A stretch of 61,507 bases of DNA, the filler included, from Hausera hauseri (Eukaryota): assembly GCA_046269625.1 (NCBI GenBank). It is 12 parts of 12 records of this genome, joined end to end, with 100 filler letters (N's around TTAATTAATTAA, not from the genome) between each part and the next. Parts side by side here need not be neighbours in the genome. Positions count along the whole stretch, not along the records: positions 38,068 to 43,375 come from JBJURY010284170.1; 11 more parts are not named here. The stretch is one strand, 5' to 3'. The notes beneath the pieces were generated by a model. That model saw nothing but the letters and a program-made list of their open reading frames with translations, did not search any database and was not told the origin of the DNA. The number at the start of each line of letters is the position of its first letter. Positions within the stretch are counted from its first letter, which is position 1. The position numbers and the translations under genes were made by a program. This document shows, in pieces, positions 4,705 through 61,507 of this stretch.

Positions 4705-6296
4705 CATTTTGTGATGTGAAAAAATTTCTATTTTGTGGTCATTTTTGTATATATTCTGATTCTCCTCAGATTAAGTTTAATGAATTGAAAGATGGCAATA
4801 AATAAATAACTATTCCAGATTTTAGCTCCGTAAATATCACAGACTCACATTGGCAGCGAATGTTGGAAAATAAGTTGTAAAATATGTCTTAAACCTGTAG
4901 ACTGACGTTGTAAAAATAATTTTTGACAATCGGTTCCTTCCTCCTTGCAACTGTTTTCTTACGACAATCACTCCAAAACCGTGACAAACCAAATTAACTG
5001 AAAATTGAAAGGAGGTAATTAGCTTAATCAACACACTGTTTAACCAAACACCCATATCCCAATGTTGCGTATTGGGTTCTGTGACATAGTGGTATTACTG
5101 AGATTTATTACTGAATATACATAGAATAATTTCAGAAATGCAAAGCTTGTTTAATTTCATTGGCTGACATAACTGAAAGAATAATGTAAACCAATAGTAA
5201 AACAAATATGTTAAATTCATATATGTAGTGAATTTTGACTCACCCGTCCAATTTCTGATTGATTGAATTTTACCACCATGTTTTGATCTTATCATGCTTA
5301 AATGTGTTCTATACAGGAAATGCGCTCCCGTTCAGTTAACATGTGACATGTACAGCTGTATATCTCTTAGAGCACATTGAAAAAGTCGATAGACAATTTT
5401 TTGATTCAAACGTTAACAGATAGACGTTATGAAACGGTTGTAAAAACACCCATCCGATGTAACAGTGGTCATAAAATAAAAGGGCTAAACTATCTGGTAT
5501 TTTTCGACTTTGAAGATGAACCTTTAAATAGCATTAATTTGAGTGAAATGTTTTCACGCTCAGACAATCAGTTTTTCATAATTAATTGCGATGCTTTATT
5601 TTCATGCTACCGCATAGCTCAGCGTTTTTGTCACAAAGTTATGTGAATTTTTACCTTCTGTAATTGCAAAAATACACCAAATAATCTGCAAATGTTTTGT
5701 GAGTCATTTTCATACTTTCTTTTTTGTCTTATTAAACCAGCTACGCAAATTGACAAGATTCTTTTTGTTAGCTGTATGATACAATTGGTTTGGAAAAGTC
5801 CTATTGATCTTTAGGCTGCTACAAACAATAGTGAAAAGATGCTGTGTCCGTCGGGTCATATGATTCGCTGGATTTCTATTCAACGATTCCACGATTATGA
5901 TTTCAATAAACTATTGGATGCACGAATTTTACGAATGACAGTTCATCAGAATTTTCAAAAACAGGCATATATTCGAATAACGTTAACATTAATAGTTGAA
6001 TTTTTCGAAAACAGTAAATCGGAATTAAATATTGGTACCAAAAATGAAGGCAAAACACCTGACAAAACAGTTAAAGGAGATGAATTTTTGAATAATCTAT
6101 CTGATGGCATAAACATTTTCAAAGTTCCAATTTTACTTCCATTATATAGCTACGGTCTCCAAAGTCAAAACTCCCAGAATATTTTCAATACGTTATTTTT
6201 GAGTATTCTTTCAACCACATGTTATTTTTTGAGTCGTTTTTCAGACAATGTTCATTTATACAAGAGTTCATTCAAGTATAATAGGAAGTCCAAGGT

Positions 6297-9200: not shown

Positions 9201-11415
9201 CCAGTTACGCGAAGGTTTAAAAAATGTTGAAATTCTAGCGCACCCCAAGCCTGACGCATAGCTAATATTAACCTCAGATGCCTCTACCACAGCAGTCGGC
9301 GCAATACTGCATCAAATTTCTAATGGTGTCAACAATCCTCTGGAATTTTATTCTCGGAAACTTACATCACCAGAAAGTCGTTATTTAACTTTCGACAGAG
9401 AGCTCTTTGCTATAGTATTAGCTTTAAAACACTTCTTTCGTTTGTTAATTGCCAGGTCCTTTACGATCCAAAGTGACCACAAACCTCTTAATCACATCAT
9501 GGATATGAAAACTTCTTCATCTCGACAAGAACGTCACATATCGTACTCCTCGACATTCAATTTTAAAATGGTACATATTTCAGGCACTGACAAATTTGGT
9601 TACCGATTTTTTGTCCAGATCAGTTAATATCATTGGAGTCACTTCCATTTTCTCACAAGCAGTGCTTCAGAAAAATGTACCAACACAGGAAATTCTTAAG
9701 TCTTTTAAATGGCACCATATTGTCGATGGAATAGCCTATGACACTTCTAAACCCTGTAATCACAAGCCAATTTTGTCTTCATCTTTGCAGAAAACTTCAT
9801 TTCGTAACGTACATTCTATTCATCATCCGGGTGCCAAAGCAACTTTTCGTCTTCTGCAACGTAGTGTTATATGGCCGTGGATGAGATTAGATGTACAGGC
9901 GTGGTTTAAAAAATTCAACACTCACAAGCATCTGAAGCCACCATTATATCACTTCCCCTGTACGTCGCGTTTTGAATCCGTTTATATAGACCTTGTCGGC
10001 CCTCTTCGTCCAGACAACGGTCATCAATTCATACTCACCATGATGGACCGTTTTTTTCGATTGCCAGAAGCCGTTCCATTACGTTCCACCAACACAGACA
10101 CCATAGCTGAGGTCTTCATCAAAACGTGGATCAGCAGATTTGGCTTCCCTTGTTTCATAATCACGGACCAAGGTGCACAATTCGAGTGAAATCTCTTTAA
10201 ATCCTTAGTCAATCGCTTGGGGATTAAACATATACACACCTCTCCATATCATTCCCAAGCGGACAATTTAGTAGAAAGATTCCACCGCACAATGAAAACC
10301 TCACTTAAAATCCTAACTAAATCACACAGCAACTGGACAGCTCTTCTACCTATTGTCTTGCTTGGCTGGCGAAACACACCTTCCACCACCACGGGTTGTG
10401 CACCAGCTGAAGTATTGTTTGGAGTACCGATTCGAGCACTTCTTGAGTTAACTGATCTGGGCGATACATCAACAGACGAACTGATTCGAAATGCCCAAGA
10501 TCACTTCGTTACACTACACAAAGACTCATTTTGTAAAATAGTAAATTGTAACAAATCAAATATACCGAATGATTTGTATACTGCCAAGTTTGTATGGCTT
10601 CGAAATCCTTCACCTGGTAATTTTCAACCAAAGTACGTTGGACCTTTCAAACTCCTTTCTTTATAGTCAAATACAGCTACAATTCTTAAAAGCGGTAAAG
10701 AACAAACGGTACACATCACCAATCTAAAACCTGCCTTTTTCGTGGATGACTCTCCTCATGATACACAAACCAACCCTAATTCAACCTGGCACTTTTCTCA
10801 ATTCTTTTGTTTCTACTCCGTTCCTTGCTAAATCAACAAATCATCAACCACCACCTGGTCCAATTCCCACTTTTCTATCTAATCTTTCTACCCTACTTTC
10901 AATTCTTTACCTGTTACTTTTCACTTCTCATCTTCTACAGCTAACGTCCCATCCAATACTTCACATTCAACACTTTCTGCTTCTCTCGTCTCAATTCCTA
11001 CTCATCTTTTCTCATCTTCCAACTCTACTTCACATTCTCCAATTTCTACTCCGCACTCTTCATTTTCCATTTCTCATTATTATCTTCGTCCTCCTTTTCT
11101 TCTTCAATTAATCGTTCCTCACAAATCTCACTTCCCTCAAAAAAACAATATCAAACAATCAACCCAAAAATACGACAAAGCTCTTACCACTACGTACATC
11201 TCCGCAAATGAACACACCACATGAAAACAGAACACGCAGAGTTATTTTCAGTAAGCACAGTAGGGAGCAATATATCGACAAAGTACAACGCCTCTCACAC
11301 ACAAAAATCGAGTAGAACACAAATCCATTTCCTTTTTGCGATTTTCTTTTCAAATTCTCACTCTCTATTAGTGCCATTTTTTGCTACGGAGGAGGGGGGG
11401 GGGTAGTGTGGTGCC
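6297..11415 (+). mobile_element. Ty3/Gypsy retrotransposon, CsRn1/Kabuki-like, near full-length internal region, degenerate (copy A)
   Basis: Gag (QKPSEFLR, FLSSLPIQIRALL, CHCC-type knuckles); protease FMIDSGAAIS; RT SPWASP, DAYPLP, PYIDDILIAS; RNase H DAS, FDREL, SDHKPL; integrase HHPG, IDLVGPL, ITDQGAQFE, VERFHRTMK, YVGPF; G-rich PPT 11388-11403. Many stops and frameshifts. Confidence 0.92.
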
Positions 11416-11908: not shown

Positions 11909-13253
11909 ATTGAGCTCATTCAGGATCCTGAAATTTATCAGTTCTTTCAATTTGGTATTCGCGGTGGTATGACTTTTGTAAATAAGCATAAGGTTACCAC
12001 TGATGAAAACACTAGTCTCTTGTATATAGATGTAAATAATTTGTACGACTGGGCTTTATCTCAACCTTTGCTATTTGCAAATTTCATTTTATGATGAAGA
12101 TAATTTAAATAGTCTCATTGAGTAATTGCCCTTTATTGACACTGTTAAAGAAAAATGAGGTTTAGTAATTGAGGTTGATTTAAGCATTCAGGCTGACAAA
12201 CATGATAAATTAGACCAACTGACTTTAGCTCTAATCAATCAGTGCCCTCCTGGTTCCGAAGTAAAAAAATTGTTGCTGACACATGAGCGTAAGTCTAACT
12301 ATGTTATTCACTATTGGTTATTACAGCTGTACATCGAGTTAGGCACTATAGTTGAAAAGGTACATAGGGCTGTTGAGTTTGACCAGGGTTATGTTTTTAA
12401 GGATTACATCGATATAAATACTGCTAAGAGGGCTGCAGCAAATATATCTTTTGAAAAAGACTTTTTCAAGCTTAAGAACAACAGCTTATACGCCAAAACT
12501 GTTGAGAATCTTTTAAAGAGGTCCAACTTGAGACTATGTAATAATGCTAAGAGGCTTATTACATACGCCAAAAAGCCACAGTTTAAAGAGAGCATTATTA
12601 CAGATAATGACCTGGTTGTCGTTCTTTTCGATAGAGACATAGTCACCTTAGATAGTCCCTCATATATCAGTCAGGCCGTATTTGATCTGTCCAAGTTGCA
12701 TATGTATGACCTGAATTATATAGAGTTGGAGACATATAGACAACAGTTTAGTCGTGAACCTAATATCGTTGACGGTGACATAGACAGCTTTTTCGTCGAA
12801 TGCCGTGGTGTTGATTTTAGATCACAACTTTTACCGGCAATAATAGTAAACGAGTAGTTGGACACTTCAAACTATGATATATATGATTCGTTGTACTCGA
12901 TTTGTTTCGCAGCCAAAATTGGGAAATTTAAAGACAAGGGCAAGGGCAGCGTTCAGTATTAAGAGGCAATTTTCCTACGGCCCAAATCATATGTCCTGAA
13001 AACCCAAACAAAACCAGTCCTCAAATGTAAAGAGATCAATCTCAAGCATACAGACTTGCAGTTCAGTAACTACCTACAAGCTTATGAAACCCGTTGCAGC
13101 ACCATGGTGGATCAGGAGCGAATTGGCAGTAAAAACTACCAGCTGATGACATTCAGTTTAAAAAGGGAAGCATTGGACCCGTTCGACGACAAGCGCCAGT
13201 GGATTGAGAAAAAACGGAGTGTTGCATACGGACATTATTGTATAAATATGTGA
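11909..13253 (+). pseudogene. Polinton/Maverick protein-primed DNA polymerase B, C-terminal half, degenerate
   Basis: GIRGGMTFV; LYIDVNNLY (motif A); KDFFKLKNNSLYAKTVEN (motif B); DGDIDSFF (YGDTDS-like); LRPKSY; ALDPFDDKR; AYGHY stop; AATAAA ~13284. Confidence 0.9.
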
Positions 13254-16198: not shown

Positions 16199-17098
16199 CT
16201 TCTAAGTGTNNNNNNNNNNNNNNNNNNNNNNNNNNNNNNNNNNNNNNNNNNNNTTAATTAATTAANNNNNNNNNNNNNNNNNNNNNNNNNNNNNNNNNNN
16301 NNNNNNNNNAAATACACGTCAAATATAGAAAGAATATCAAACCCTATTTCCCAATTAGAATTGTTCAACCTACAGACAACCATAGTTTTACAATCACTGT
16401 TCGAAAACAGGGAGAAAATAAGACAAAATTACCAGCAAGAACACCGAAATTCCTAGAAGAACGAAAAAAAGAATTAAAGCCAGAAACAATAGTGAAGAAA
16501 CAAAAATTGGAAGAAAAACCTCAGCCAAAGAAAACGCCATCTATTTATAACTATTTATTCAAAAAAAGAAAAACAAAAGAATGAAAACCAACAAATGGAA
16601 CAAAGCACCTCTCAAAAGGCTAAGTGCGTAAAGAAAATTAGTAAATCTATGATAACCGAAATCAATGTTCTATTAGGAAAAAAGTCCGAAGAAAATGTCC
16701 ACCACAAAACAACTCAAGACTACCAAAGAATGCTGATACCTACCGAATATTGTGGCAAAAAATGATTAAAGAAGCCATGTTTTACATCAAAATTGCTCCA
16801 GTCAGAAAATTTTCGAAAATAAATATATCTGGGAAAACACTAAGTTAGGAAATTATTTCACCTCAGTCTTCCGCTCAAAAAGGACAAGGAAAATAATAAT
16901 TCCAGTAGACAAGCAAATTCCGGTACTACTAAAGAAGCAATATCAAAAATATCGAATAGAAGGAAAAATTCCAGATTTAGATCGAGATCTTATGGCGGAC
17001 TGGACATTAATACAAGTAACTGTGACCCATGGAAAAGTTCCATTAACCCCAAGTAGAAGGTAATCCACGGATACCTGTATCAAGACGGAGATGGTCTT

Positions 17099-17458
17099 GT
17101 GTTCGAACCGATTGAATTAACGATCCAGGTAGACTTGGATAGAGACGATTGGGACAAAGAAGATAATGAATGCCCTGTGTGCTATGCCAATCTGAGGCAA
17201 GGCTATGTGGTATTGGATAATAAAGTTTGCCGCCACAAATACTGTCGCGATTGTCTGGAGAAATGGACGCTCGACAATGGAAAAACGACGTGCCCAGTGT
17301 GTCGTGCAGAAGCCACTGAATTGAAATACTACTCAGACGGAAGTTACATCCAAGTTGTTCGAATCAAACCCTATCATAGTTACAATCTGGAGACGAGCCC
17401 ATTAACCAGTCAAGGCCAATTAGATTCCCAAACGGACCTACCAGAAAGAATCGATTGA
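17099..17458 (+). CDS. C3HC4 RING-finger domain (putative E3 ligase), probably the C-terminal part of a longer frameshifted ORF
   Basis: CPVC-x15-CRHKYCRDC-x3-W-x8-CPVCR: complete C3HC4 ligand set plus the conserved Trp and terminal CPxCR. Confidence 0.88.
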   Translation: MFEPIELTIQVDLDRDDWDKEDNECPVCYANLRQGYVVLDNKVCRHKYCRDCLEKWTLDNGKTTCPVCRAEATELKYYSDGSYIQVVRIKPYHSYNLETSPLTSQGQLDSQTDLPERID

Positions 17459-17533
17459 GACAACCTAGAACATTGGGCGCTACCTCTTCTGACGTAATAG
17501 GCTCCTTCGAGGATGCTGCTCAGGGAGGAGAGA

Positions 17534-18244
17534 TGTAATGATCAGACGATGATGCACTAGACCGGATTACGGCCGAAAATAATATAAATATTAGTGTATA
17601 AACTCGGGTTATTTTAAAATTGTCGATTGTTAAAATATTTTTAAAATTGAATCATAATGATTGTACTGGAATTTGCGAATGATAAAATTATAAGAATATC
17701 CATGATTGAATTGCAAATGTAAGAAATGTAAATATAATTAGAAGTATTACAAATAAATCGAACAAGTTTCGGACCTGCTACTATATAAGCAGATCGTGAA
17801 CCATCAGAAAGACAGATAACTAGCTGACGACCTTAGAGCATTCGGAACAAACAAATCAAATTCATTGTATTATTGACTATTTCTTGGATTGACTTGAACT
17901 GAATTGTGATTGATCGAGAACTTGTGGTTGTATTCAGAAATAAAGGTGAATTATATTTGGTTGTATTTTAAATTTCCTTATATAGTTTCGCATCGTCTCT
18001 TAAAGACGATTTGACTTCCCTAAGGTTAAAATAAACTTAAAATCAATAGTTAGGACGAGAACTATCTAAATTAAGACAGTCATTCATTGCAGACAGTACA
18101 AGCATCACACTAAATAGAACGAAAATTATAAGGTACAAACAGACTTTTCGAGAACGAATAGTCCGAACCTGCTCAAGAAGGAATTAATCTATTAGAAAAA
18201 CATTGTTATAGTGGGAGACGGTAAGGGCCACCCCAACTGTAACA
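17534..18244 (+). repeat. LTR (~711 bp) of RING-encoding element
   Basis: Directly after PPT; TGT...ACA termini; TATATAA ~17782; AATAAA ~17938; shares motifs with 42372-43110. Confidence 0.8.
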
Positions 18245-33919: not shown

Positions 33920-36900
33920 CCCAATCTGTATTTATCACACAAAATTCCACTCCCTAGCCAGATCGTGCGTTCTGGGATGCAAACATTACAAAAACAACTC
34001 CAGTTTTTCTTCACCTTCTTCTCCTCCTCCTCCTGCCTACCAGTCATCTTCTTTTCCTCCATAATTTTCAAAAAACTAAAAAGGCCGCCAGATGTTGCGG
34101 CACATTCTGGCATAAACAACCCTGCTCAGTCTTCTGGCCGTTTTAACACCGCCTCCGCAGTTTTTCTGTTAAAAGGTACACTGTTTTCTAACAATGCTCC
34201 ACATATCGATTTTCTCATCGACTCAGGAGCTGCCTTTACACTCCTCCCTTTGTCCTGCGTCCCTACATCAACGGCAGTTTCTTCTCCTCAGCTATTCACT
34301 GCCAGCGGTCAACCGTTGCGAATCGCAGATACCACGTAACTGGTTTTAACATTTTCAAACTTACCAGGCAAATTTGTCTGGAAATTCCACGTGGCCAACA
34401 TTAAATCGCCAATAATCGGCTCAAAATTTTTGGCTGCGCACGACCTGCTAGATGACTGCAAGTACGGTTGTTTGCTACGTAGATACTCCGTCGTAAAAGT
34501 TAACAACTGTCTAACACGCAGCGCAACAGACCAATCGACTGCAAATTGCTCATCTTTTGATAACGACACATCTAGTAGTTTATCTATTTCCTTAATTACA
34601 CCTCAAACACCAAAGTCGATTTTAAAACAGTCGGTTAAACCGAATGTTGACGATGGCAACGTCGTTCGTTCTTCGCCAATCACAGTCACCGCTTCCTCTG
34701 ATAATACGCCTCAATCATTTTTATCACTAGATTCCAATCTCAAATCCTACATCAATTCTTCTTGTCCTCGCGTACTAAAAAAAACCCTAGCTTTAAGCCC
34801 CTGTCAACAACTTATCACCGCATTGTCACTCAACACTAAAGGCCTATCAGACAAAAGGTGAGACCATTATCGCCCCGTAGACAAAAAGCCGTGGAATTAG
34901 AATTTAACAATTTGAAAAATCTGGTATCATTCGGAGGTCCAAATCACCATGGGCTTTACCATTACATGTAGTGGCAAAAAAGGACGGTACTTTTCGACCA
35001 TGTGGCGATTACCATCTAGTAACCAATCTAACACTCATGGATGCTTACCCATTACCGCTCATAAAAGACATCCTGCGCAGTCTTAACAACACCATTACCT
35101 ATTCCACAAAAGATTTGCACAAAGCCTACCATCAAATCCCCGTTGCACTCGATGACATTCCAAAAACTGCTGCCATCACTTTATTTGACCTTTACGAATA
35201 CATGTTTATGCCATTCGGTTTACGTAACGCAGCCCAAAAATTTCCAACGCCACATCGACACCGTTTTCTTAGGCCTTGATTTTGCTCATCCTTACATTAA
35301 TGACATATTAGTTGCCTCCATGTCCGTAAAACAACACCATAAACACCTCCGAATTATTTTTCACAAACTGCATCATAGTAACTTACAAGTCAATTTCTCC
35401 AAGTGCTATATTTTTTAGAAACGTGTCAATTTCATAGGCCACATTATCACTCCTCACGGTCACTCTCCACAACCTGATTGACTACAGCAATTAAAAAACG
35501 TAACACTACCAACGACCATTACAGATATGAGAAGTTTTCTTGGCACACTACATTTTGTCCATAAATACATACCGCATTGCTCTGAGCTTACGGCACTTTT
35601 CGCACACCTCTCATCTGGAAAAAAAAGACAATTAATCCAATGGACTCCCGATTTAGTCACCAAATTCGATTACCTACGCGAAGGCCTAAAAACCGTCGAA
35701 ATACTGGCCTATCCAAAACCCGACGCAGAGCTAATACTTACCACTGATGCCTCTTCCACAGCTACTGGTGGAATACTACACCAAATTTCCAACGGCATCG
35801 ACGAACCTTTGGAATTTTATTTTTGAAAACTCACACAACCAGAAAGCCGATATTCTACCTTTGATCGTGAGCTACTAGACATAGTTCTGGCAGTAAAACA
35901 TTTCAAGCATCTCTTCCTCTCTCGCCCATTTATCATCCAAACGGATCACAAGCCTCTGTTACACACTAAAACAGCCATCACCAAGGCAGGAACGACAGAT
36001 ATCGTACCTATCTACATTTAGTTTTGTCATAAAGTATATTTCAGGCACGGAGAATTTGGTCGCGGATTTCCTATCACAGTCGATCGGCTCAATTACGGTT
36101 GAACCAATATTTTCTACCGAAATTCTAAAGCTCAATCAGCCATCTGCCGATATTCTTAGCTTTCTTAAATCCTTCGAAATCATTGATGGCACTGCATACG
36201 ACACATCTAACCCCGGTAATAAAAAAATCATTCTCGCTCCTTCTTTGTAGAAACCAGCTTTTCTTCACAAGCATTCATTTCATCACCCAGGCTTGAAAGC
36301 CACGTTTCGCTTGCTCCAACGTCATGTAGTTTGGCCATCAATGCGCACAGATGTACCGGGTTGGGTTAAGGAATGCGCCGCCTGTCAAAAATACAAAGCC
36401 AACAAATAGCTTAAACCTCTGCTTTACCATTTCCCATGTACATTACGTTTTCATACCGTCCATTTTGATCTCGTCGGACCTTTACCTTCCGATAACGGGT
36501 ATCAAGGTATTCTCACTATGATGAATCGTGCTTCTCGTTGACCTAAAGCCGTTTCCCTCCTCTCAACAAACACCGATTCAGTAGCAGACGCCTTCATCAA
36601 AATCTGGATCAGTCGTTTTGGATCCCCACGGCATATCATAACGGACAAAGGTCCGCAGTTTGAATCGAAATTTTTTAAATCGCTTGCTAAACGCTTGGGG
36701 ATATTACATTTCCATACAACACCGTACCACCCACAAGCAAATGGCCTCCTTGAAAGATTCAATCGAACTATGAAAATTTCTTTAAAAATCCTAGCAGACA
36801 ATAATCGCAATTGGACGTCCATCCTGCCATTTGTTCTACTGGGTTGGCGCAACACCCCTTCCACCAACATTGGTTGTGCTCCAGCCGAAGCACTTTTTGG

Positions 36901-37760
36901 GACTCCAATACGAGCTCTGTTCGAACTTTTCGACCTTCACGACAATCCGACAAACGAAAGCATTCGCGCAGCACAGTCGCACTTTGTTGAGGTCAACTCA
37001 GACTCATTCTTCCGCTTATTTAACAATAACAATTCGTACATTCCGAAGGATTTATACTAAGCCAAGTTTTTATGGCAGATGGATCAATCACCTTCAGGCT
37101 TTCGACCTCAGTATTCTGGTCCATATAAACTACTTCTCCTCTCATCTAATACAGCTACCATCTTACGCCAAGAAAAACCTTACAATGTCCACATTTCAAA
37201 CCTTAAGCCCGCTTTCTTCGTTGATGACAATCCGGATGCCGATTCTACCTCCAACTCCAACTCAACTCTCGCTCCTTCCATTCCTTCCTCAAACTTTCTC
37301 CACGTTTTCGCTCCGTTACAATAACAACTCTTCTCTCACACTAAATCATCTTCAACTTCCGCACCGCTTACTGAATCTACATCGCTTACTCCTTTTTCTC
37401 CGCCCACCTCTTTTCCCTCTCTTTCACCATCCCCACCACCTTCAGTTTCTTCGCCTCTCTTATTTGATTTATTCTCTTCACCATCTTCAACATTTTCACC
37501 TCAAGCAACACAGCACAATGAATCAGAAAACCTTACAAAACGTCCACCAAAAAATATCGTCCAACAACCAAGCAAAAACCAACCAAATAGGACACGCAGA
37601 GTGACATTCAGTACCTATAGGAGGGAAAAATCCGTAGACGGAACACAACGCCTCATACACACCAAAACCCAACAGGCACTAAACAATTTTAGCGTTTCGC
37701 CTCCTTCTGTTTCACCCTACAGTTTCTTTTCTGCCACGGGGGGGTGTGATGTAGTGCCAC
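33920..37760 (+). mobile_element. CsRn1-like Gypsy, gag end through PPT, degenerate (copy D)
   Basis: CHCC knuckle CIYHTKFHSLARSCVLGC; FLIDSGAAFT; RPCGDY; DAYPLP; PYINDILVAS; TTDASS; HFHTTPYHPQANGLLERF; YSGPY; LKPAFFVDD; PPT 37738-37744. Confidence 0.92.
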
Positions 37761-38639
37761 GGTCTAAGACATGGCCCTCCATTTCTGGCAATAGAGTCAC
37801 CGTTTGGTCTATATTTTGTTTAGGAGACGAACAGGGCACATTAGTGTCAAATAAAATCAATATTCGTATTTGGCTACTTCCCAGACTATTAATTATTCTG
37901 CCTTTTAAAATTTTACCGCCTATTACGTAATCGGCACTGAAATGCCTAGAGTTTAATTTGAAATTAANNNNNNNNNNNNNNNNNNNNNNNNNNNNNNNNN
38001 NNNNNNNNNNNTTAATTAATTAANNNNNNNNNNNNNNNNNNNNNNNNNNNNNNNNNNNNNNNNNNNNCGATTGTTTACAGAACAACATTTGCAAGGGGAC
38101 CCAGTTTCGAAAAGTGTTCCCTCAAAACAGTTCAACACGATTGGTTGAAATGGGTCAACTGAAAGGGAGTGGCTATCGGGTGTCGCACTGCTGTTTACTT
38201 GACTGAATGTTCAGTGCATCTTCCCGAGTCTTCCGATTTAAAGAAAATAAAAGGAAATAATATCGAAAGGTAGGCCCACTCTAGACATTTAAAACAAAAC
38301 AAAAAAATGAAAATTTGGAGGTGTTCTTTCAAATCAGAGGTTTTCAGCCACATTTTCCACACACCGATACTCTTTTCTAAATTCTAGGATGATCGCATTA
38401 ACGTAAAAATAAAATAACACATATGTGTATGAACAAGGCACTCGATAGATCGAAAGAAGTAGCTAAGAAGGAGAAGAAAAAAGTGTTTTAAATAGCAATG
38501 CAAAGGGGCCTAATTGCAAAATAAAAAGGTGAAGGGTAAAACAATGTCAATAGTGTACAAGCTGATTGCCACGTGGTGGTCGGGTTTGGTAATGTGTGAC
38601 GTGTGAATGGTGGCGGAAGATGCAGGGGAGTAGTACCGT

Positions 38640-39030
38640 TCTCGTATACTTATTTGTTGCGCATGGTCCACACTAAGTGTCATATTGTGCGACGATTATA
38701 AGTATTTATGTTTGAACTGGAGAGCATGTTGTGAAGAAATTGTTAGTCATGATGCCTCGTCCATGTGGATTTGGGGGCGTGAGTTTGGAGAAGATTTTGT
38801 GCATATGTTGTAGGGTTGAGACGACAACGACACAGGAAGAGTAAAGGTGCTCTTCGGTTTCGTACAGTTTTTTTGTGACAGATTTTGCAATATGCCGTGT
38901 TTCGTGAACCAAATTGTGGTATGCATCTCACTGGAGTCATTTTGTAAATCAAACAAACAGTTATTTCTTTTATTTTAGCTATAACCTGTGTGTTATGTGG
39001 ATTCGTGAAAATTTCACTGTGGTCTGTGAT
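38640..39030 (-). mobile_element. L1/Tx1-like non-LTR ORF2 C-terminal zinc-knuckle remnant
   Basis: YKMTPVR...YCKICHKK/LYETEEHLYSSC (CxxC...ETxxHLxxxC) across a frameshift. Confidence 0.55.
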
Positions 39031-40339
39031 GAAGTATTGTTATGTCAGATCTTTCAGCCATTAATTTTTTTTCCAAAGATGTTTACTATAATTTTACAAC
39101 ATCCACCTCCTTGTCGTCTTTTATTAATTAATAAATATTTAGCCATCAATTTATTTACATTTTTCCCTTGCCAAAGGAGGCCTACACAGCCAAACACCAG
39201 AACCGCAGGGCTCCACTTTTCAGCCATCGTTAGAAATTTTAGAGCTACCTGTGGGCAAGCACGAGGATAAGGACCTCGCCATGTAGACGCCGCATGGGCG
39301 CAGGCCACTAGTACTAGCCAAATGAGGGAGAATGTTTGTGACAGGGTTGTCATTTTGGCCATTTCATGGCTAAATATCACGATTCTGGTCATTTTTAATA
39401 GGCTTTGGCCATGACTTTTTGGGTTTGGCCATTTTTACCCATTTGCCATTTTCTGGCCTTTTCGGGACGACTGACCACGAATGTTTTGGAATTTACCATA
39501 TTTATATTCTGGCCAAATTTTTTTTTAATATTTAATTTCTTGCAACATTTATTCTAATGAACGCCGAGTGACTCCCCTTGCCAGTAAAAGCTACAGGTCA
39601 GGTGAACTACTGAACTAGGTATCATGTTACCTTACCAGAGCCGCTTGATATGCTCAGCGTCCAACTTAATGGTTTACAAGACAATAGCTGAACACTCCTC
39701 CTGTCTCACATTTTGTAAGATGTCCATTTAAAAGACCAACTGCTATTTTCACTGGATGCCAAAGTAGACGAAATTTATTAATGTTTCTGCTTCACTGTAA
39801 AGCTTTACACCTGAACTGGGTCTCACCTGGTCTGGGGCAAAATAATAGACCAGGTCATAAAATGGCCGTCTGTGTAACATTTTATTACCAGATCGCAATT
39901 CACAATGAGTCTTAACTAAAGTCATGGTGGAGGGGGAGGGGGGTATTTATAAACACAATGTGTGTAAAAATATTTCAAATGTGTGTTTAAGAGAAGTTGT
40001 CATACGTCTCACTTACTTGCTCGTTGAATATATTTATGTGAACGTAAGCTCATGCTTTAGTGCTCAGCCGATGCGACCTGCAGGAGGTTTCTGTCTTGAA
40101 TCAGATACGTACTATCAGTAATACAATCTGTAATTGAAAACACCAACCTCCTACTTCTGCTCCTGCAAGGATCCAACAGACAAACAATAATAACTGGCCT
40201 GTATGAAAAATCACCTAATGAGCACAGCAGCAGCTCCAGACTCCTAATCTAATTTATTTTAATAACATACCTATTTGAAATTTCAAACCTAAAACCAGAA
40301 GATGTTGCATATTCGACAGTGCTTGTTATTCGAGTTTCG

Positions 40340-40940
40340 GAGAGACAATGATGCAACAGAAAACTACAAAAACATTAGTGATGTTTATCCAACCTCACTG
40401 ACTGGTTTGCAGAGTTCAGGTCGGGTAATTTTAATCTTTGTGATTCGCCTCGTTCAAGAAGGCCGTGTATATTGATAATGATGTTTTATGGACAAAAGTC
40501 AAACAAAATTCATATCAAACTAAGTGAACAGTAAAATATTTAAAGCAAATTTGTAAAGTACACAGCGAAGGTGTTTCGGTTGTACATATTCTGTCAGAAG
40601 AAAATAAAGTCAATCGTTCATATACATGTAATTTGTTGTTGCAACGACATAATGCAGAAGAATTTCTTGATGGTGTGGTTGACCGAGGATGGGAAATTGG
40701 TCCTTTATGACAATCCAAAATTTAAAAGACAACGATTCTTTCCTACTCAAACCCCATTTTATACCCCAAAGAATGGCTTACACTCTAGAAAGGTACCGTT
40801 CTCTGACTGGTGGAATGCACAGGGTATAATGCACTTCGAAATATTAAAATAAAGTCAAGCTGTAACTGCAGAGCTTTATTGTCAATAATTATATCGAGTA
40901 AGCCGAGTTTTGATTAAAAAGCGTCCATCTCTTGTTTAGA
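40340..40940 (+). mobile_element. Mariner (Mos1-like) transposase remnant
   Basis: WFAEFRSGNFNLCDSPRSRRP; VLYDNPKFKRQ; TPKNGLHSRKV; WWNAQGIMHFEILK; VTAELYCQ; KKRPSL. Confidence 0.85.
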
Positions 40941-41079
40941 GAAAAGGCTGCCAGAAAGATTCAGGATAAAATAAAAGGTGCTATTTCATACACTTGAAGT
41001 GTCCAATATTCATGAATAAAGGTAGTAGGGGAAAAACGGGAAGTCTGCCGCACCCGCCCGGGGGTGTGCGAATCGATAA

Positions 41080-41470
41080 ATCAGTTTCCACATGTGTCAA
41101 TCGATAGTATACATGGCGCACTATTGATCGGTAGTGTGCTAGGCGACGGTGCAGTTAGGTATAGTTGCTATGCACATTTTTGCACATTTCACAAATCAAT
41201 AGCTGCACAGTGCAGTATTGATCGAATCGATCGGGACAAAGTGCTAATTGATAGTGCACATTAGTGCACATCGACTGGTCCACAGTACAGGTACACAGCA
41301 CATGTGCAAGTGTGCAAAAATCAATAATATCGGTTTTCCGATATTTCCAATATTGATGATTAGCATATGGCACCGGGTGCAATCGATTGGAAATATTATG
41401 CACTATGGAAAAGTGCAATTAGAATTTAAATCGATCGAGTCGATTCCTAATAATATCGATCCAAAGTGCA
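41080..41470. repeat. Degenerate low-complexity repeat rich in ATCGAT / GTGCA(C) words
   Basis: Many dispersed ATCGAT, GTGCA and TGCAC words in ~400 bp. Confidence 0.5.
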
Positions 41471-41537
41471 ACTGAGACAGACTTCCCAAAGGTTTTTTAG
41501 GTCCCATGGATTCAAAATTCGACAAATGTTTAAGCGG

Positions 41538-41809
41538 GAACAGATAGGAAGTGCCACATTGTAATCCGGGTCTTCCATCTCAGATTTCCGAAATTCTGTG
41601 AGCAACTCGAATAAATATCGATTTTCAGCGAACAGTATCAATTATTTTGACACCAATAAATTTTTTGAGAAATCTGAGAGCGACAGTCGATTCCACATAT
41701 CTTAATGCATCTATATAGCAGACAAAAATTTGGGTGTGCAAAGTATTTACAAGTGTCTCGAAATGAACAGATAGGAAGTGCCACATTGTAATCCAGTTCT
41801 TCCATCTCA
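41538..41809. repeat. Direct repeat pair (~45 bp; 41538-41582 and 41764-41809)
   Basis: GAACAGATAGGAAGTGCCACATTGTAATCC.G.TCTTCCATCTCA twice. Confidence 0.85.
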
Positions 41810-41814
41810 AATTG

Positions 41815-43375
41815 ATGGGAATTCCAGATTTAGATGCTCAACAAGTAATCGAATGGACCCTAATAGCCGTTAACCGTGACTCCAGAAAAAGCTCAATAGA
41901 CCCAAAAAGAAACAGTTACATGGATGTTTATATAAGAATTCAAAAGGATTGCTTTTTCAAGAAATATCATGGGTCACAGATTGCGATATAGATAACAATA
42001 CCGAATTTCTTTGTCCCGTTTGCGAAGCCAACTTATGGCAAGGCTATTCAATTTTAGCAAATAAGAATTGTCGACATCGTCATTGCCGAGACTGTTTAGA
42101 ACAGTGGACGTTAATCAATGGAAAAACCACCCTGTCCAGTATGCCGAGCCGAGGCCGCACAATTGAAATATTTCTCTAGAGGAGAAAATAACCATATTGT
42201 GGAAATAAGGCCTAACCCCAGTTACCAACTCGAAATAAATCCCAGAATTAGCCTACCAAGCTCTTCGTTAGATAGTTCGCAAAGTGATTTACGCGGACGG
42301 ATAAACGCCAGACCGTGGCGTCACTTCTGACGCAATAGGCACATTCGAGAATGCTGCTGAGGGAGGAGAAATGTTGTAAATAAGCAAAACATTCAAATTG
42401 GCTATCTTGTATATAGATATTGTAGCGAAATTATATCAATTGAGTAGTCATTATTCCATTAGATTTATAATTAATCTGGTTATTTAATATCTGGGCTAAC
42501 AGCTAAATTATTGATATTGCAAATCTAATTGAAATATAATCAGACTAACAGCTGGAAATTGTTGAGTAATATTAGAAATCGAGAAATAATTGTATTATAT
42601 GAGTAGAAAACGCCTACGTTATGTGATAAGCAAGTATAAATACTGAATGGAAAAATGGATAAGGTCAGAAGGAGAGATCGACTTTAGCGTTGATTCGAGA
42701 AAACAACGATTCAAACTTGAAAAGGATTACATACAAGTAACCAGTTCAGATTGATTAGAAAAGTGACTATCGTGACTAAATCGTTGCTGTCGATCGTTGC
42801 TGTAATTACGTTTGGTAAAATTTATTCTATTGATTATCTTTTTCTTTTAAAATTCGTATTGTTTTCCATCGGCTCTTAAAGCTGATTAGAGATACATTAA
42901 GGGTAAAATCATACGGTAACTTATATAAGTACTAGAGTTTATTAAACCGAAACACAGGACACGACATTATACAACCGCACGCACGTAACATCGACATATT
43001 GTCACATTCGTTTAAGGAGAACTTTAAACCGAATCTGCTTATAGTAAACAAAATTGAAGTGTAAAATACGTTATATATAGAGGGAAGGGCCACCCTAATA
43101 ATATATAACATTTTGCGACACTAGCAGGACAGTATGTGCCTAGCTAGATACTATTTAGAGTCAAGTAACGACATACCGGCGATCAGCGCCATCTACACCA
43201 AGTAATTGTGAGAAATTTAAAATTTGGGATATACGTTATTAGACTTAAATTTAAAGGGATAATTTAGCATGAATACTGACAACCAAGTAAACGGTAAAGA
43301 TAAATCACCTATACGTCAAACACGTAGAGTTATATATAGAGAAATAAATAAACGAGCAAACGCCGAAACTAGAGC
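41815..43375 (+). mobile_element. RING-encoding LTR retrotransposon (copy 2): RING ORF, PPT, LTR, PBS-like site, possible gag start
   Basis: IPDLD...WTLI matches copy 1; PPT GAGGGAGGAGAAA ending 42371; LTR 42372-43110 TGT...ACA; TTGCGACACTAGCAGGAC 43113-43130; open ATG frame from 43269. Confidence 0.82.
41949..42330 (+). pseudogene. C3HC4 RING-finger domain, one frameshift
   Basis: CPVCEANLWQGYSILANKNCRHRHCRDCLEQWTLINGKTT / CPVCRAEAAQLKYFS; collinear with 17099-17458. Confidence 0.88.
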
Positions 43376-48539: not shown

Positions 48540-48729
48540 CGAAGTAATAATTAATAGAATAGTAACCCACAATTTGATCAGAACAGAAAAACACACCCAG
48601 TTAACAAAAATATGTCTTCATTGTGTTTAACTTAATTTTCGTGTGACTATATATACTATTTTTGTTAACTGGGGGTGTTTTTCTGTTCTGATCAAATTGT
48701 GGGTTACTATTCTATTAATTATTACTTCG
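48540..48729. repeat. Inverted repeat, ~72-bp arms with ~45-bp spacer, at contig start
   Basis: CGAAGTAATAATTAATAGAATAGTAACCCACAATTTGATCAGAACAG... and its reverse complement ending 48729; one mismatch seen. Confidence 0.9.
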
Positions 48730-50829
48730 TCATTTTTTTGTATTGTAATGTTTTATTTCCTTTTTGTAGTGCGTATTGTACTGTACCGTAAAAGTGATAA
48801 TTTTGATGTATTCTAAACTATACTTTTTGTAGTATAGCTTTTGGTAGAATTGTGTTTTAATCATAAATCGTGTAGTATTGATAATGGTTTTGATATCATA
48901 AAATAGATAACTAATGTAGAGTTTTATAAGTTTTACGCATGACCTTGATTGCAGACGCAGCTGTATATCTAGTTATAATACTGCATGACTTAAATAGTTA
49001 CTTATTTTGGTTTTCTATAACATATTCTATTAGACTTTTTGTCATATGTTTTGTTTTTCAACCCTAACATATATATCACTCTTTTAACATAGTTTAATTC
49101 AAATTTGATTTAGGTGTACTTAACTTCGACAAAACAACTGGATACTGGATGGTTCATTCGGTTCCGAATTTTCCTTATTATGGAAGCTACAAATATTTCG
49201 AAAAGTCGACGGTTTATGGACAGTCATTTATTTGTGTTACCTTAAATACAACTTATTTGGATTCCATTGGTAATTCTGTACTTTTGTTACGTTTTTCTTC
49301 AAGTATAACGATTTTTCAAATTTTGAAATATTTGAGGTATTTCTTACGTGTACATTTGTCATCCGTATACATTATCATTTGGCAATCTTTATTCAGTTCT
49401 ATCTTTTTGTTTCACTTTACCATCGGCAAAAAATCAAGAATAAAAAAACAAACAGAAAAATCCAATGCACCATTAGATGATTATGAAAGGTGCCATAAAA
49501 CCAATTGTGGTGCCGCGGACTTGAGCGTCACCACGATCCAGCTGCCGCAAGTCAAGTGATTTACGACAGTCTCTCAAACAAAGAATGTTTTCAATAATTT
49601 ACATCTTCACGGAAGTTCACCAATTAACAATCTCAGAGTACTAATTGCGATCCTTGTTTACTCCAAACGAAGATTATGAAATTATCAGCATCAATGTTCT
49701 TTGGTTTGATTCCGAAACCAAATATGTATATTACACTTTGACCAAACAAACAGCATGCGCTATTGAAGATACGCATATATTAAATGAATTCGGATATTTT
49801 AAAATGGCCCTCAATATTAAAAACAATTCGAATCTATCAAAAAATTTTTAAATAATGTCAGTAAACATTGTTATCAATTATATCAGACGAAAACTATGAA
49901 TGTTGTCGATGCTAACCGTTAGGACAGTTTGAAAATTATTATGACATCTGCGTTTTGTGAAACTGTCAAATCATCGCGTTTTCTCCATACGTTCTTCATT
50001 TATCATTCTTGGATTACTTTTGGTTACTTTACTTTGGAGTATTTAATTTTTATATACAAACAACGATTTTTGCTATATGAAGCATCAGCTTAAATATTGG
50101 AGGTATTAATTATTTTGTTGTTAATGATCCGTGAAATTAGTCGATTATTTCATTCTATTAAATCAAATCTGGACGAAAATGTTGGGTTAAGTTTAAATCG
50201 CATTATATTGTCTTGTGTATCCGGAATTATTTATCTCTGTTTATGTATTTGGTAATCGTACGTTTTGAGAATCGAGCTCATCATTAATTAATTTCAAATG
50301 ATTGTTACGGCTTTTGAGCTTTTAAGTTTATTAGTTCTTATGATAGTTTTCACGAAATCCGCAGAATATAAATATAGATATTTGTATATAATATGTAAAT
50401 ATTGAATAATTGAATTTTGAATTTTAAGATTGAAAATAAACCGTTTTTTGTATTTATCTCTTCATTTGCTTAAATGGGATATTTAACAATGGTTCGTCCT
50501 TTTTCTATTTCGGATTTTATTCTCTTAAACCGAAGAATAACAGTGTGCATTGTTCGTTGTTTTGCCTTTTGTTTTGTCATCATTTATTTTATCTACATAT
50601 TTAACCTAATGTGAGAAACAATATGAAAATTAACAATATAAAATCAATTATATTAATTAAAATGAAAGACAAAGTCAAATTCGAAAAAACTCTCCCAGCT
50701 TCCATATTGGTGATTTAACGCTATGCAGTTCCTTGTATTCTTTCAGTTTCAATGTTAGGCACACTTTAGCTCATTTCTGCGGAAAAATTCTGCTGATACT
50801 GCTACTGCTGTTTCTCCACCGTGTGAATT

Positions 50830-52726
50830 AACAAGCATTGGACTACAGAATGAATGGGGCAGAACCGGACGCCTACTTCAACAAAATTGAACAGCTGGTG
50901 AAGGGCATCCTTAGCCACAAAATAACAGCAGAAGCTCTAACAGAGGAATTAATGATCCACTGTTGTGACAATCCAGAAATGAGAAAGGAAATCTACAAGT
51001 GACAAAAAAAGCGTCAAACAAATCAAAGAGAAAATACGGAAAGTACACGAAGTGGCAACAAAGACGGAAGAAATAAACACAGTCAGAGAATACACTAGAG
51101 AGGGTCGACGGAGTTATCGGGATGTGGTGGTACACAAATTTGATAAACCAAGGCAGGAAAGAAGGGATTTCAAACTGCACAATAATCAGGTAAAGAGCAG
51201 GATGAAATGCTGGTCATACCAGAAAAATGGGCATACAAATCGGACATGCAACCTCCAACAAGCACCAAGATGTTTTGGTTGCGGGAAAGAAGGATATATT
51301 AACAGGAATTGACCGGAAAGAAAACCCATAGTATTCTATGGGTGCGGTCAACAAGGGCACATAAGACGAAATTGCATAAACAAAATGCAATCGATGTCAC
51401 AATAGAGGGCACAGGGAAGAAGAGTGCTATACAAAATTGGGCAAGAGCAGAAGAGAACAAAACACGTATACCGACAATTTCAAACGTGCGGGGTATGGTT
51501 AGAAAAGATATGGAGAGAGGGCGAACAGCAGGCTTGCATACGTTGCAAATATTGATGAGGACTATGAAGAATCCATCACAGAGTCGACAAACCCAAAAGG
51601 CACAGCCTCGACAGAAGTGGAGCTAGTTGGGGCATTACATTAAAGAAATCCAAAGGCTCCCAAAATATTTGAAGGAAGGGACAAGGTATTGAAGGAATGA
51701 AAGAAAGAACAGAGGAAAAGGTACGGAAGTTCATAAAGAAGGGAACATTTGGAGACAGAAACGAAGAAGTACGAATTACAGAAAGTCAAAACGAGAACCT
51801 CCATGAAGAGGGGATTTTTTCCTTGGAAGGACTGTCGGAAAAGCAGATCACGTACGATAAACTACAAGGACGGCCAGGTGTATAAATAAAGATACAAGGT
51901 AGATGGGAAGATGGCCTATTGGACACAGGGCACGGGTGAACGTGATGAGTAGCACAATTTTTGAAAGATTGATAGATTTCTAGCTGGAGAAATTAGATAT
52001 CACGCTCCATTGTGCAAATGGTAGCCCCTTAGATTGCATTGGTGAATTGTCCATAAATGTGGAACTTAAGGGTGTACAGAAGTGCGTTACTTTCAAAGTA
52101 GTGACACACGTATCATCAGAAATAATTGGTGGAATGGAACTGCAAAAGACTTTTGGAATGGAATTAGGTTGGAGACAGAAAGATGGAGAGGAACAAAGGT
52201 ATGATGTATGCAACTTAGAAGCAAAATTTCGTCGAAAAGTGACGAATGAAAAATTGACCAAAAGAGCTAAGGAGATTCTGCGGATAAACGAAAACTCAAC
52301 GGTATGGGACATAGTGCGGAAGAACCAAGAAGTCTTCATGGCTGACAAGTGGGATATCGGCTGTACAATATTGATCAAGCATAGAATAGATACAAAAGGC
52401 GCACCAATTAATATCAAACGGCATAGACAACCAGTGAATTTAGAAAGCAAAATTGATGAGACCATCAAAAACTTATGGGAAAACAATATCATCAAGAAAT
52501 GTAATTTACCTAGGAATACTCCGATGATCTGCGTCTGGAAGAAAGCGAAAAACAATGTCAGAATTTGTCTAGACTTTAGACAGCTGAACCTCGTCACTGA
52601 AAGACAAGCGTACCCCATGCCGAATATGATGGAAATGATGGATAAACTGTATGGGGCTAGATATTTCACATCAATCGATCTGGGAAACGCATACTACCAG
52701 GTCGAACTAGAGGAAGAATCCAAGTT
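50830..52726 (+). mobile_element. Ty3/Gypsy gag-protease-RT remnant (third lineage)
   Basis: Four CCHC-type knuckles; GLLDTG protease; VRICLDFRQLN, AYPMP, YFTSIDLGNAYYQV RT motifs; truncated by spacer. Confidence 0.9.
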
Positions 52727-58260: not shown

Positions 58261-61200
58261 ATGTTGATAAGAAATACCAGTATCTCCTCAACAAGAAGGA
58301 AACGTCAAGCATCTACAAGTTTTGACGAGTGCATCCGAAATAATTCCGAACAACAGCAGCAGCAGCAGGAGAAACCTTCCATAACGGTCAGGTACGATTT
58401 AAACAAATCGTACGTGAACGTGAAAGTAAACATGTCTGGGACAACAATACTACAGCTGAGGCATGTTCCGTCCAGTGTGCGCAGCCGGTTGGCATCAGAA
58501 CTGAGAAAATTCCGCCAACATCAATGCAAAGTGCAATATTATGAACTTGCAGAATTTAAAAATCTGCAAGGTGACAGGAAACAATGGTACTTGTCACATC
58601 GAGCCGAACCATATTCCGACGATTTTATTGCCGGCGTAGGTGAAAAGCTCGACGAAAAAATCGCCAACTACACCGAAAAGTTTGTGGATGGCGAATTATA
58701 AAAATTGTCACTCTCGGCTTTATCATAACAAAGTCGAGTTATATAATTTACCTGTTCAGACGATCATTCATACCGACAACTGCAGGTCTGAAGCAGTCTC
58801 TGATGGTGATAAATGTGCAAAACAAATAAGATGAATATTGTTTTCTTTACAGTATACTGGCCGTTTTAAATTTCACAAAGTGGACAGAAAATATGCAAAT
58901 CGTGCATATCAGTATGGACAGTATTTTTCCGAATTGGATTTGGATGAAAGCTGGATGCAGATGAAACTAAAAACCATTCCGACGTTTGAACGGCGTAATC
59001 CGACGCAGTCAATCAACGATTTCCGGTACAACTCAATAGTTGATATACCGGTAGATGAAGAAATCTATAAGAATCCCTATGTGGATATAATCTATAGAAC
59101 ATGAAATCCAAACGGACGCCCAGTAAATGTATTACTGTTGAAGCGGGTGGAAAAGTACCATTACGTGGCCGTGACAAATTTGGATAGATTGCTGAATATA
59201 GATAATGATTAGTTTATTAAAAAACAAATACGATGAAAATGGTGCCCTGTGTGTCTGCACGGCTTTAGATCACAAACGACATGGAAAAAGCACGTGACGT
59301 TGTGCAGACAAAATGCAACAGGAAACAATGTATGTCATGCCAGTAAAATAGGAGCTGAAGTTCAGTGACTAGTGGAAAACTGACAATCCGTCATACGTTG
59401 TATATGCTGATATTGAGGCAATCCTACCACAGCACAAGGTATATGATCAAGAACATATTTCAATTACCGTCGGCATGCTGGTTGTCCCAATAAAAGCTGC
59501 AGTTCAACCGCAATGTTACGTTTTTCATGGCTGGAACTGTGTACGTGATTTGCTTCATCAGTTGGAAACAGCAGTAGAAACAAAAGTCGCGCCCTAGTAC
59601 AGTAGAAACAGCAATAAACCTTTTTTGGGGACAGATGAATATGAACCATTGATGTTTGCAGCCACCGATGAATGTTACCTGTGCCCCAAAATATTACCGT
59701 TCAATGCACTGGAACGGCACGTACCGGATAATGATCATTTGACTGGTCGATATCTCGGAGTAGTATGCAATTCGTGCAATTTTGCAAGGCGTGTGCGGCC
59801 ATTCTTGCCTCTGATTTTTTATACCTTTCGGGGTTATGTTTGTAACAATATTTTAAAATGGCTTATAAACGCATTTCGGCATTGCGAACTATACATAATT
59901 CAGACTGCTCATATAAACCGGTTCCAGGTACGCTTCCTGGGTTCATTGAAATTTCTCAATGAATCTCTGGCAAAGCTGGTGAATGCCTTGCTAGATGTAC
60001 CGCTAACATTGACTCAGTTCCCCACACGTATTGCACGTGGCAAAGGCATATTTTCGTACGACTTTGCGATATCATACAAGCGGCTCCAGACGACAGGCGA
60101 ATTACCACCGCAATGGTCCGGTATAACAGAAGAAGATCGTTTTGGGCAGAGCTCGCCTGTAGAAACCTATTGGAGTACATACTTCAGTATCTGAAACTGG
60201 ATGTGTATCTGTTAGCCGATGTGTTTCAAGCGTTTTAAGCAAAAGCGTTGGCTGGCGATAGCCTGGATCCACTCAACTTTTATTCTATACCGGGAATGAG
60301 TTTGGCGTCAGTTCTAATGTCATTGAATCAAGACATTGAGCTGCTGAAAGTCTTGGAAATGTACTGGCTATTTGATGTTGGTATTCGCGGCGGTATGACA
60401 TTTGTCAACAAGCATCAGGTCAGTGCTACCGCCAATACCACATCACTGCTGTATATTGATATTAATAATTTGTACGGCTGGGCACTTTTGCAACCCTTCC
60501 CATACGGTTTATTCGAATGCTCAGTCGACAGCCAAGATCTGGATGACACAATGTTCAACCTACCACGAGCAGACAAAGCAGACTCGGTCGGATAACTGAT
60601 GGAGGTCGATCTCGTGGTACAAAATGAGCTGCATGACGTTTTGAACGATTTAACGGTCGCGCCATTTAACCAGTGTCCGCCGAGCTCGAAGGTGAAGAAA
60701 CAGCTTATGACGCATAAACCAAAGCTGAATTACGTGGTCTATTGGCGTCTGTTGCAATTTTCCATGCAGTTGGATGTACGCATCACACGGCCACATCGTG
60801 CAATTTGATTTGCTCAGGCTCTCATATTTAAGGCGTACATCGATGGAAATTTGGAGAAACAAGCCGCAGCTTGTACAAAGTTCGAAAATGGCTACTACAA
60901 GTTGAAAAACAATTCCCTATACGGAAAAACAGTGGAGAATCTGAAAAAGCGGCTTAATGTACGCCTATGCAATAGCGAAGTGCGGTTGGTTACGTATACG
61001 AGTAAGGCGCAGTTTCGGCGGTCAATGCACATTGCCGATGGATTGTTTGCGGTGTTGTTAAACCGGGAAGAAGTCGTTCTGGACCGGCCAAGTTACATCG
61101 GACAAGTGCTACTGGACCTGAGCAAGTTGCAAATGTACGAGCTTCAGTGTCGCGACTTGGCACGTTACCGGCAAATGTTCGACGGCTGTGAGATCAGTAT

Positions 61201-61507
61201 CGTTGTCGGTGACACAGGCAGCTTTTCCTTGCGCTGAGAAACGTCAATCGCGACCAACTGCTCCGAAAAATGATAGCATATGGATTAGTGGACACGTCAA
61301 ATTACCCGCAGAATCATCCGCCATCACGAACAAAATCGGTTGTTCCAAGGATGAAAACAAAGGTCATGTTTAGCACCGAGAATGGATATTCCTGCGCCCA
61401 AAGTGCTACCGTCTCCTGACGGACTGTGGACCGAAAATGTGCGCAAAAGGCGTACAGCTGTCCCAGACGGAAATCAGCCACGGTGATTATCGCCGTATCT
61501 ATGAAGA
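58261..61507 (+). pseudogene. Polinton/Maverick pPolB (N-terminal region, endonuclease VII-like domain, exonuclease, polymerase), degenerate, runs off window
   Basis: VINVQN..EYCFLYSILA; YHYVAVTNLDRLL; VVYADIEA; CYLC...DHLTGRYLGVVCNSCN; KGIFSYDF; DVYLLADVF; GIRGGMT; YIDINNLYG; KLKNNSLYGKTVEN; GDTGS; LRPKCY. Confidence 0.92.

Follow-up and report, generated by a model that had tools for sequence, protein, structure and literature searches.

The window analyzed here – a 61,507-nucleotide stretch of DNA from Hausera hauseri (GenBank assembly GCA_046269625.1) – consists of short contigs joined by 12 spacers, each composed of N44, a 12-nt linker, and N44. Two of the contigs carry related LTR-element remnants (Table 1): element A lies in the contig at 16310-20371, and element B forms the right end of the contig at 38068-43375 (JBJURY010284170.1), stopping at position 43375 because the contig finishes there. 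Element B is composed, in order, of a RING remnant, a conserved block, 13 purines, a 739-bp repeat, 2 bases, a PBS-like 18-mer, a 138-nt leader, and an ATG-initiated frame, and an earlier reading of the sequence alone (the sequence-only reading) had placed the RING, PPT, LTR, PBS-like 18-mer and ATG frame where we find them. The ATG frame has no match in Pfam and can be designated gag by position only. Element A has the same order up to the LTR, with no primer site following it, and is an ordinary 3′ end of an LTR element.

Table 1. Positions of the features of elements A and B in the window.
Feature	Position	Strand	Comment
Accessory ORF remnant, element A	16312-17538	+	Approximately P0001 residues 435-870; several frame changes; stop just inside LTR
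RING, element A	17171-17305	+	Within the accessory ORF remnant
Pre-PPT block and PPT, element A	17485-17533	+	PPT at 17522-17533
3′ LTR, element A	17534-18244	+	711 bp, followed by unrelated DNA without a PBS
High-copy repeat, unrelated, cutting element B on the left	41077-41813	.	Summed contig depth 6,500-710,000, vs 2-20 in unique bins
3′ remnant of accessory ORF, element B	41821-42379	+	P0001 residues 683-870
C3HC4 RING finger, element B	42012-42147	+	Broken near its end; Pfam; 75% identical to its element A counterpart across 40 aa
Pre-PPT block and PPT, element B	42323-42371	+	Last accessory-ORF codons and nucleotide-level constrained signal
PPT, element B	42359-42371	+	13 purines abutting the LTR, directly before TGT
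LTR, element B	42372-43110	+	739 bp, TGTT..AACA, TATA-like box at 42635
PBS-like 18-mer	43113-43130	+	2 bases past the LTR; one mismatch relative to a tRNA CCA end
Leader and 35-codon ATG frame (from 43269)	43131-43375	+	Open to the contig end

That the 739-bp repeat is a true LTR, as the sequence-only reading had proposed, is supported by its TG..CA ends, the abutting PPT and PBS-like site, and an aligned TATA-like box. Both elements have a TG..CA terminal repeat with 12-13 purines directly before TGT; a run of 12 purines followed by TGT is present at three places in the window, two of which are the PPTs of elements A and B. Moreover, the homology between the elements begins within the ORF and ends exactly at the LTR end, as predicted if element A carries a 3′ LTR and element B a true LTR; the 260 bases after the LTRs are no more alike than shuffled sequences (z -1.2; 181 of 200 shuffles score as well).

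Element B is not, however, a second copy of element A carrying the same LTR, as had been supposed. The LTRs at 17534-18244 and 42372-43110 agree in 477 of 802 columns (59.5%, against 54.8% in shuffled alignments); they are homologous and colinear yet very distant (score z 8.2, with none of 300 shuffles as good), and blastn links them through no more than a 68-nt piece (E 7e-4). Across 74 gap-free RING codons pS is 0.94 and pN 0.21, and 47 of 80 differences are at third positions. These saturated synonymous sites, together with the approximately 60% agreement of the LTRs, indicate that elements A and B represent two old, related, but separate families that split long ago, and the same codon comparison shows that the RING stayed under purifying selection across that split. 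The frame changes and stops in both elements were acquired later. Just before the LTR end, a motif (AGGGCCACCC, at 18217-18235 and 43081-43099) is identical in the two distant LTRs, and is a candidate integration or packaging signal.

The RING-PPT-LTR order is confirmed in both elements, but the RING proves to be the end of a much longer ORF, present in two families, which the sequence-only reading had overlooked. A HMMER scan with the open RING frame of element A yields 982 matches at E 0.001, of which only P0001, an intact protein of 870 aa, falls below 1e-30 (E 1.2e-35; 59% identical across query residues 1-116). Generic RING proteins follow as the next best matches (8 scanned). P0001 is a singleton, with one member derived from one 16,242-bp ENA contig, and is colinear with element A from about residue 435 and with element B from residue 683 to its last residue, tblastn aligning it to element B as four colinear pieces of 45-59% identity (joint E 6e-47). 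The element B ORF is broken by frame changes near 41900-41910, 42130 and 42250-42320, and its last frame crosses the PPT to a stop at 42377-42379, inside the LTR. We considered the RING as a C-terminal extension of an integrase and rejected this, the start of contig A aligning instead to P0001 residues 435-472 (E 0.003). P0001, known as a protein alone, is predicted to be the ORF of an LTR element. In the search for further relatives, a word-index protein search with the RING frame of element A gave no match, and one with P0001 residues 60-740 returned only P0001 itself among 7,421 candidates. Related-locus scans gave one chance locus and none in viral sequences, two loci in metagenomes (both unrelated RING genes), and none in either prokaryote genomes or phages.

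A block of approximately 45 nt preceding the PPT had been described as strongly kept between the copies, and the pattern as written is exact in both (42 of 48 bases, z 11.5, none of 200 shuffles; blastn E 1e-12). The conservation at the nucleotide level holds; what had been missed is that the block is the coding end of the long accessory ORF. A single frame is open across it, all five amino acid changes between elements A and B are conservative, and the P0001 C-terminus has the same motif as the frame running across the block and PPT in both elements, which together identify the block as the end of the long gene. Synonymous change is strongly depressed in the block relative to the RING core (pS 0.17 vs 0.94), with third-position changes at 2 of 17 vs 47 of 74 codons (Fisher p 1e-4). 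This substitution pattern establishes a double constraint on the block, from coding and from a predicted nucleotide-level signal, the latter probably with a role in strand transfer or in priming of the plus strand. The reading of the block as an RNA structure that is purely non-coding was rejected, as it folds no better than shuffled sequences (z -0.63 and 0.21); a small hairpin occurs in both copies, in different registers, and is not significant. The only Rfam match over 38068-43375 is a chance one (E 0.54).

Upstream of the portion shared with the elements, P0001 residues 246-345 (approximately) resemble DnaQ-like exonucleases. Both of their PDB matches are to the proofreading domains of DnaQ and PolC (2 of 2; E 1.3e-4 and 4.5e-4); they also match a PHROG exonuclease family (E 1.1e-4) and four DnaQ/PolC models in NCBIfam (E 0.004-0.011), and P0001 matches Atlas RNase_T clusters at 0.89 and 0.87, which serve as leads only. 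The four libraries are concordant, with each match weak and below curated cut-offs, and Pfam contains no DnaQ-like match at E 0.1. In the DnaQ alignment with PDB 8h18 the acidic residues are not conserved in either motif I or motif II (motif III lies outside the aligned part), and because of this the DEDDh-like domain is probably a pseudo-nuclease. The architecture of P0001, as read from its sequence, is an N-terminal part, the DnaQ/DEDDh-like domain, a charged linker, a family-specific conserved stretch, the C3HC4 RING, and a short tail; a single-sequence fold of the whole protein is unusable (pLDDT 31). Pfam recognizes neither gag, pol nor env in P0001, and no transmembrane-like stretch (hydrophobic 19-mer above 0.95) is present after residue 30. 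It therefore carries no env family recognizable by Pfam, in contrast to the fusion glycoprotein that forms ORF3 of env-bearing errantiviruses; a separate env upstream of the accessory ORF is possible. The families of elements A and B likely carried the DEDDh-like domain too, which we infer through P0001 because the corresponding region lies beyond the ends of both contigs, in element A upstream of where the contig begins.

The C3HC4 RING has all eight zinc ligands aligned, with the element B copy interrupted, and given this full ligand set the protein is likely to be an E3 ubiquitin ligase. Pfam zf-RING_2 scores 40.8 bits in element A (E 2.7e-10; cut-off 27.3) and E 8e-6 in the first piece of element B, below the curated cut-off; the Pfam RING match of P0001 is at 30.8 bits (cut-off 21). 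A structure model of the element A frame (pLDDT 81) has the RING flanked by beta hairpins. Compared with the PDB it matches generic RINGs, none at E 0.001, and compared with viral structures it has 16 matches at E 0.001 (TM 0.33-0.48), of which the RINGs of baculovirus IE2 and herpesvirus ICP0/IE61 are best (E about 1e-4, TM 0.43-0.47). These alphaherpesvirus and baculovirus proteins, the closest viral structural neighbors, share a RING followed by a beta hairpin with the element A model, but TM is below 0.5, identity is about 20%, and the domain context differs; there is no sign of direct descent between the element A RING and ICP0, IE61 or IE2. The model was built on 36 of 149 generic matches, chosen in favor of short proteins with C-terminal extensions, and because of this selection the likeness to ICP0 is a hint only.

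The PBS-like 18-mer is tRNA-like in its position and its end, and its distal half presumably resembles the T arm of an animal tRNA-Arg(UCG). A DNA pattern scan of viral contigs found neither the predicted tRNA end nor the block, and the PBS core pattern gave five loci there, none of which is a tRNA gene. PMC13524379 lists 189 tRNA ends, 17 of which finish in TCGCCA: 12 are Arg, 3 Ser(GCU) and 2 of other kinds. Compared by eye, each of the 17 has four or more differences from the 12-mer of the window, against the limit of 2 used in that paper. A tRNA-Arg primer is plausible from the sequence, and by its end the candidate isotypes are Arg and Ser(GCU).

For a single LTR preceded by a PPT and followed by a PBS, the explanations suggested had been head-to-tail tandem elements, an integrated one-LTR circle, or the collapse of two LTRs in assembly, and we consider this to be the right set of options. 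One public sequencing run contains part of the stretch (share 0.33), being perhaps the source sample or perhaps another individual; no RNA runs containing it are listed. Depth is given as the summed depth of filtered contigs in that run, which is not copy number. It is 2-21 in the eight least-covered bins to the left of element B, 160-540 over the ORF remnant, and 4,074 where the block, the PPT and the start of the LTR lie; within the LTR it is 5.8 (bin 42493-42669, similar to unique DNA) and 51, and it rises to 1,290-3,341 towards the LTR end and primer site, with 990 over the ATG frame. From the high depth at these places, the two LTR junctions are part of a multi-copy family, as is the frame downstream. 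Contigs related to element B depart from it at 27 of 203 letters upstream of the LTR, 35 of 307 inside it, and 18 of 194 downstream (about 9-13%), with a 195-nt related contig covering 43115-43308. With these differences and the LTR interior at a depth of 5.8, there is no sign of near-identical LTRs that could have been collapsed.

The left edge of element B adjoins the unrelated high-copy repeat, which includes a 49-nt direct repeat (starts at 41538 and 41765), is rich in TGCAC and ATCGAT words, and has many joints among its relatives; satellite, MITE and Helitron-like sequences are all candidates for its nature. One contig, of which no more than some 30 letters fall on the side of the repeat, matches 41784-41987 with a single difference. 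A second high-copy repeat is located at the contig start (38068-38598, summed depth 13,000-22,000).

We conclude that element B is probably a head-to-tail tandem sharing one LTR, and genomic rather than a product of assembly. Such tandems are common both in plants (PMC11899658) and in Drosophila, where they generally arise by recombination between LTRs (PMC5932611), so that the PPT-LTR-PBS layout is by itself unsurprising. Element B resembles these, as far as they are described there, in having a PPT before and a PBS after one LTR, and differs in that neither an outer LTR nor a target-site duplication is seen on the contig. If LTRs recombined unequally, or if a tandem intermediate was inserted, a single LTR would close one element and open the next, and the high-copy repeat would later have cut the tandem on the left. 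The main competitor, which we regard as unlikely, is an assembly artefact in which the 3′ LTR of one locus has been joined to the 5′ LTR of another, leaving the findings on the accessory gene unaffected. The contig is indeed a 5.3-kb unplaced piece ending 265 bp past the LTR, the family is repetitive on both sides of it, and no contig spanning the LTR is found among the 8 listed of 27,441 pieces. Such a joint needs near-identical LTRs, however, and the nearest listed LTR contig differs by 5 gaps as well as the 35 letters noted above; the interior bin is not raised in depth, a weak argument given one run, possibly of another individual, and filtered contigs. We consider it quite improbable that a one-LTR circle was integrated after opening within the accessory ORF, which would give a circularly permuted single element. 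Such an integration would account for a left edge that falls inside the ORF (at about P0001 residue 683), and PMC5408684 mentions a scaffold with an LTR element in circularly permuted order, interpreting it as an extrachromosomal circle, but the adjoining very high-copy repeat explains the cut by later insertion or rearrangement, and recombination between LTRs is the tandem route described as usual in the part of PMC5932611 cited above.

Pieces of reverse transcriptase, integrase, DNA polymerase B, DNase II and WD40 proteins are identified by Pfam on other contigs of the window. Three decayed gypsy-type gag-pol pieces with reverse transcriptase and integrase matches (7261-11111, 23762-24735 on the minus strand, and 34340-37010) are mutually related at about 66%, and a GNAT_acetyltr_2 fragment (5815-6513, E 1.5e-10) is located just upstream of one of them on the same strand. 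At 50850-52726 there is an A-rich gag with several zinc knuckles (by eye), a protease, and the start of a reverse transcriptase cut by the contig end; its strand bias is the same as that of element A, with no detectable homology. Two related pieces of a protein-primed-type DNA polymerase B (11930-12857 and 59598-61237), one beside an endonuclease VII match, are what we take to be Polinton-like. A C2H2-like finger with a weak Myb match (32787-33317, E 0.002), an arrangement that we assume to be that seen at the start of R2-type retroelements, lies back to back with a 370-codon open frame on the minus strand (31495-32607) without a Pfam match. Long imperfect palindromes are present at contig ends (15580-16201, 71% over 658 nt; 48540-48729, 86% over 193 nt) and are candidate fold-back elements or assembly artefacts. 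There are also tandem units at 2760-3733 (about 470-500 bp) and 29367-30591 (372/605 bp), and pieces of host genes, namely a WD40 repeat (3916-4284) and a DNase II exon (49098-49300).

On balance we lean towards elements A and B being decayed tails of two LTR retrotransposon families that end in a long RING accessory ORF, in a repeat-rich eukaryote that is most likely an invertebrate animal. The families are probably Ty3/gypsy; there is no pol on the contigs of elements A and B, and neither the gag-pol contig (48540-52726) nor the other gypsy pieces in the window have a tblastx link to them. An active element would express the accessory ORF as its last gene, with the last codons overlapping the conserved signal and PPT and the stop lying in the first bases of the LTR. 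Viral RING proteins are known to remove host silencing factors, and an anti-silencing role is known for the viral RING E3 ligases ICP0/IE61 and IE2. A dead DEDDh fold would be expected to bind nucleic acid. PMC5408684 describes Maelstrom and EXD1 as DEDD derivatives that are inactive yet retain the ability to bind RNA. By analogy, it is conceivable, if doubtful, that the dead nuclease fold binds nucleic acid while the protein marks a host silencing factor for degradation. Removal of such a factor may be the most economical use of the ORF for the element, a tentative view at best; that the ORF serves the replication of the element itself, or the turnover of its proteins, has about the same likelihood. 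In its fullest form the proposal – an old animal LTR lineage with its own counter-defence protein, in which a dead DEDDh RNA-binding module is combined with an ICP0-like RING ligase degrading a small-RNA or chromatin silencing complex – is speculative and rather unlikely to hold entire, as is its corollary that the gene would be locked in place by last codons that double as the plus-strand priming region.

The counter-defence proposal has to be weighed against a less probable than not, although substantial, alternative in which the RING ORF is a passenger whose job is neutral or on the replication side rather than directed against the host (for example as the C-terminal part of a longer polyprotein, in handling the RNA of particles, or in turning over proteins that the element itself encodes), or in which the element is Bel/Pao rather than Ty3/gypsy. 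The planarian element Burro carries RING-type and ubiquitin-related motifs inside its polyprotein (as given in part of PMC6431247), and the DEDDy ORF3s of rotifers have no clear link to copy number in the sections of PMC5408684 that deal with them, both of which would fit a passenger. P0001, though, is a separate 870-aa ORF lacking any gag, pol or env match in Pfam, and neutrality is at odds with selection having kept the RING across a saturated synonymous distance.

Of the structures described here, the PPT-LTR-PBS layout either belongs to a known kind or is an effect of assembly; the passenger RING gene is the less familiar part. Activity is described as undemonstrated for the non-env extra ORFs of LTR elements in the portion of PMC5408684 cited, and their function is largely open. 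The passenger gene matters more than the layout. A RING ligase that purifying selection has kept across families, and that in a relative is fused to a putatively dead nuclease fold, is an assayable anti-silencing candidate; the case stands on two broken fragments and one protein without genomic context. Titles and the starts of abstracts in the literature covered – a scope outside which lie Repbase, GyDB, subscription journals and bioRxiv supplements – give no LTR-element ORF that combines a DEDDh-like domain with a RING, and the word 'RING' has no occurrences in PMC13524379, PMC11963269 and PMC3248453; the family may already be entered in Repbase or GyDB.

Several known systems share individual components with the accessory ORF. 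KolobokD is a mobile element with a DEDDh domain, but belongs to the DNA transposons, and the available text of PMC9587614 does not contain the word 'RING'. Fish PML (RBCC and DEDDh) has a RING and a DEDDh domain in one host protein, but is a restriction factor with the RING placed first and an active nuclease, as described in part of PMC10123124. Burro/GYPSM1, a giant planarian gypsy, is likewise gypsy-like and has RING-type zinc-finger and ubiquitin-related motifs; these sit in a Gag-Env-Pol polyprotein of roughly 4,900 aa in the relevant part of PMC6431247, whereas in elements A and B the RING closes an ORF that lies at the 3′ boundary. Juno and Vesta of bdelloid rotifers are LTR elements of invertebrates in which the last ORF is not env and has, as predicted here, a DnaQ-like exonuclease fold (part of PMC5408684). 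Their DEDDy-type ORF3 retains its catalytic residues, their pol includes a dUTPase, and the word 'RING' is absent from the text of that source available to us. In the families described here, by comparison, the best matches (of P0001) are of DnaQ/DEDDh type, without conservation of the catalytic acids; the ORF is fused to a C3HC4 RING and runs across the PPT into the LTR.
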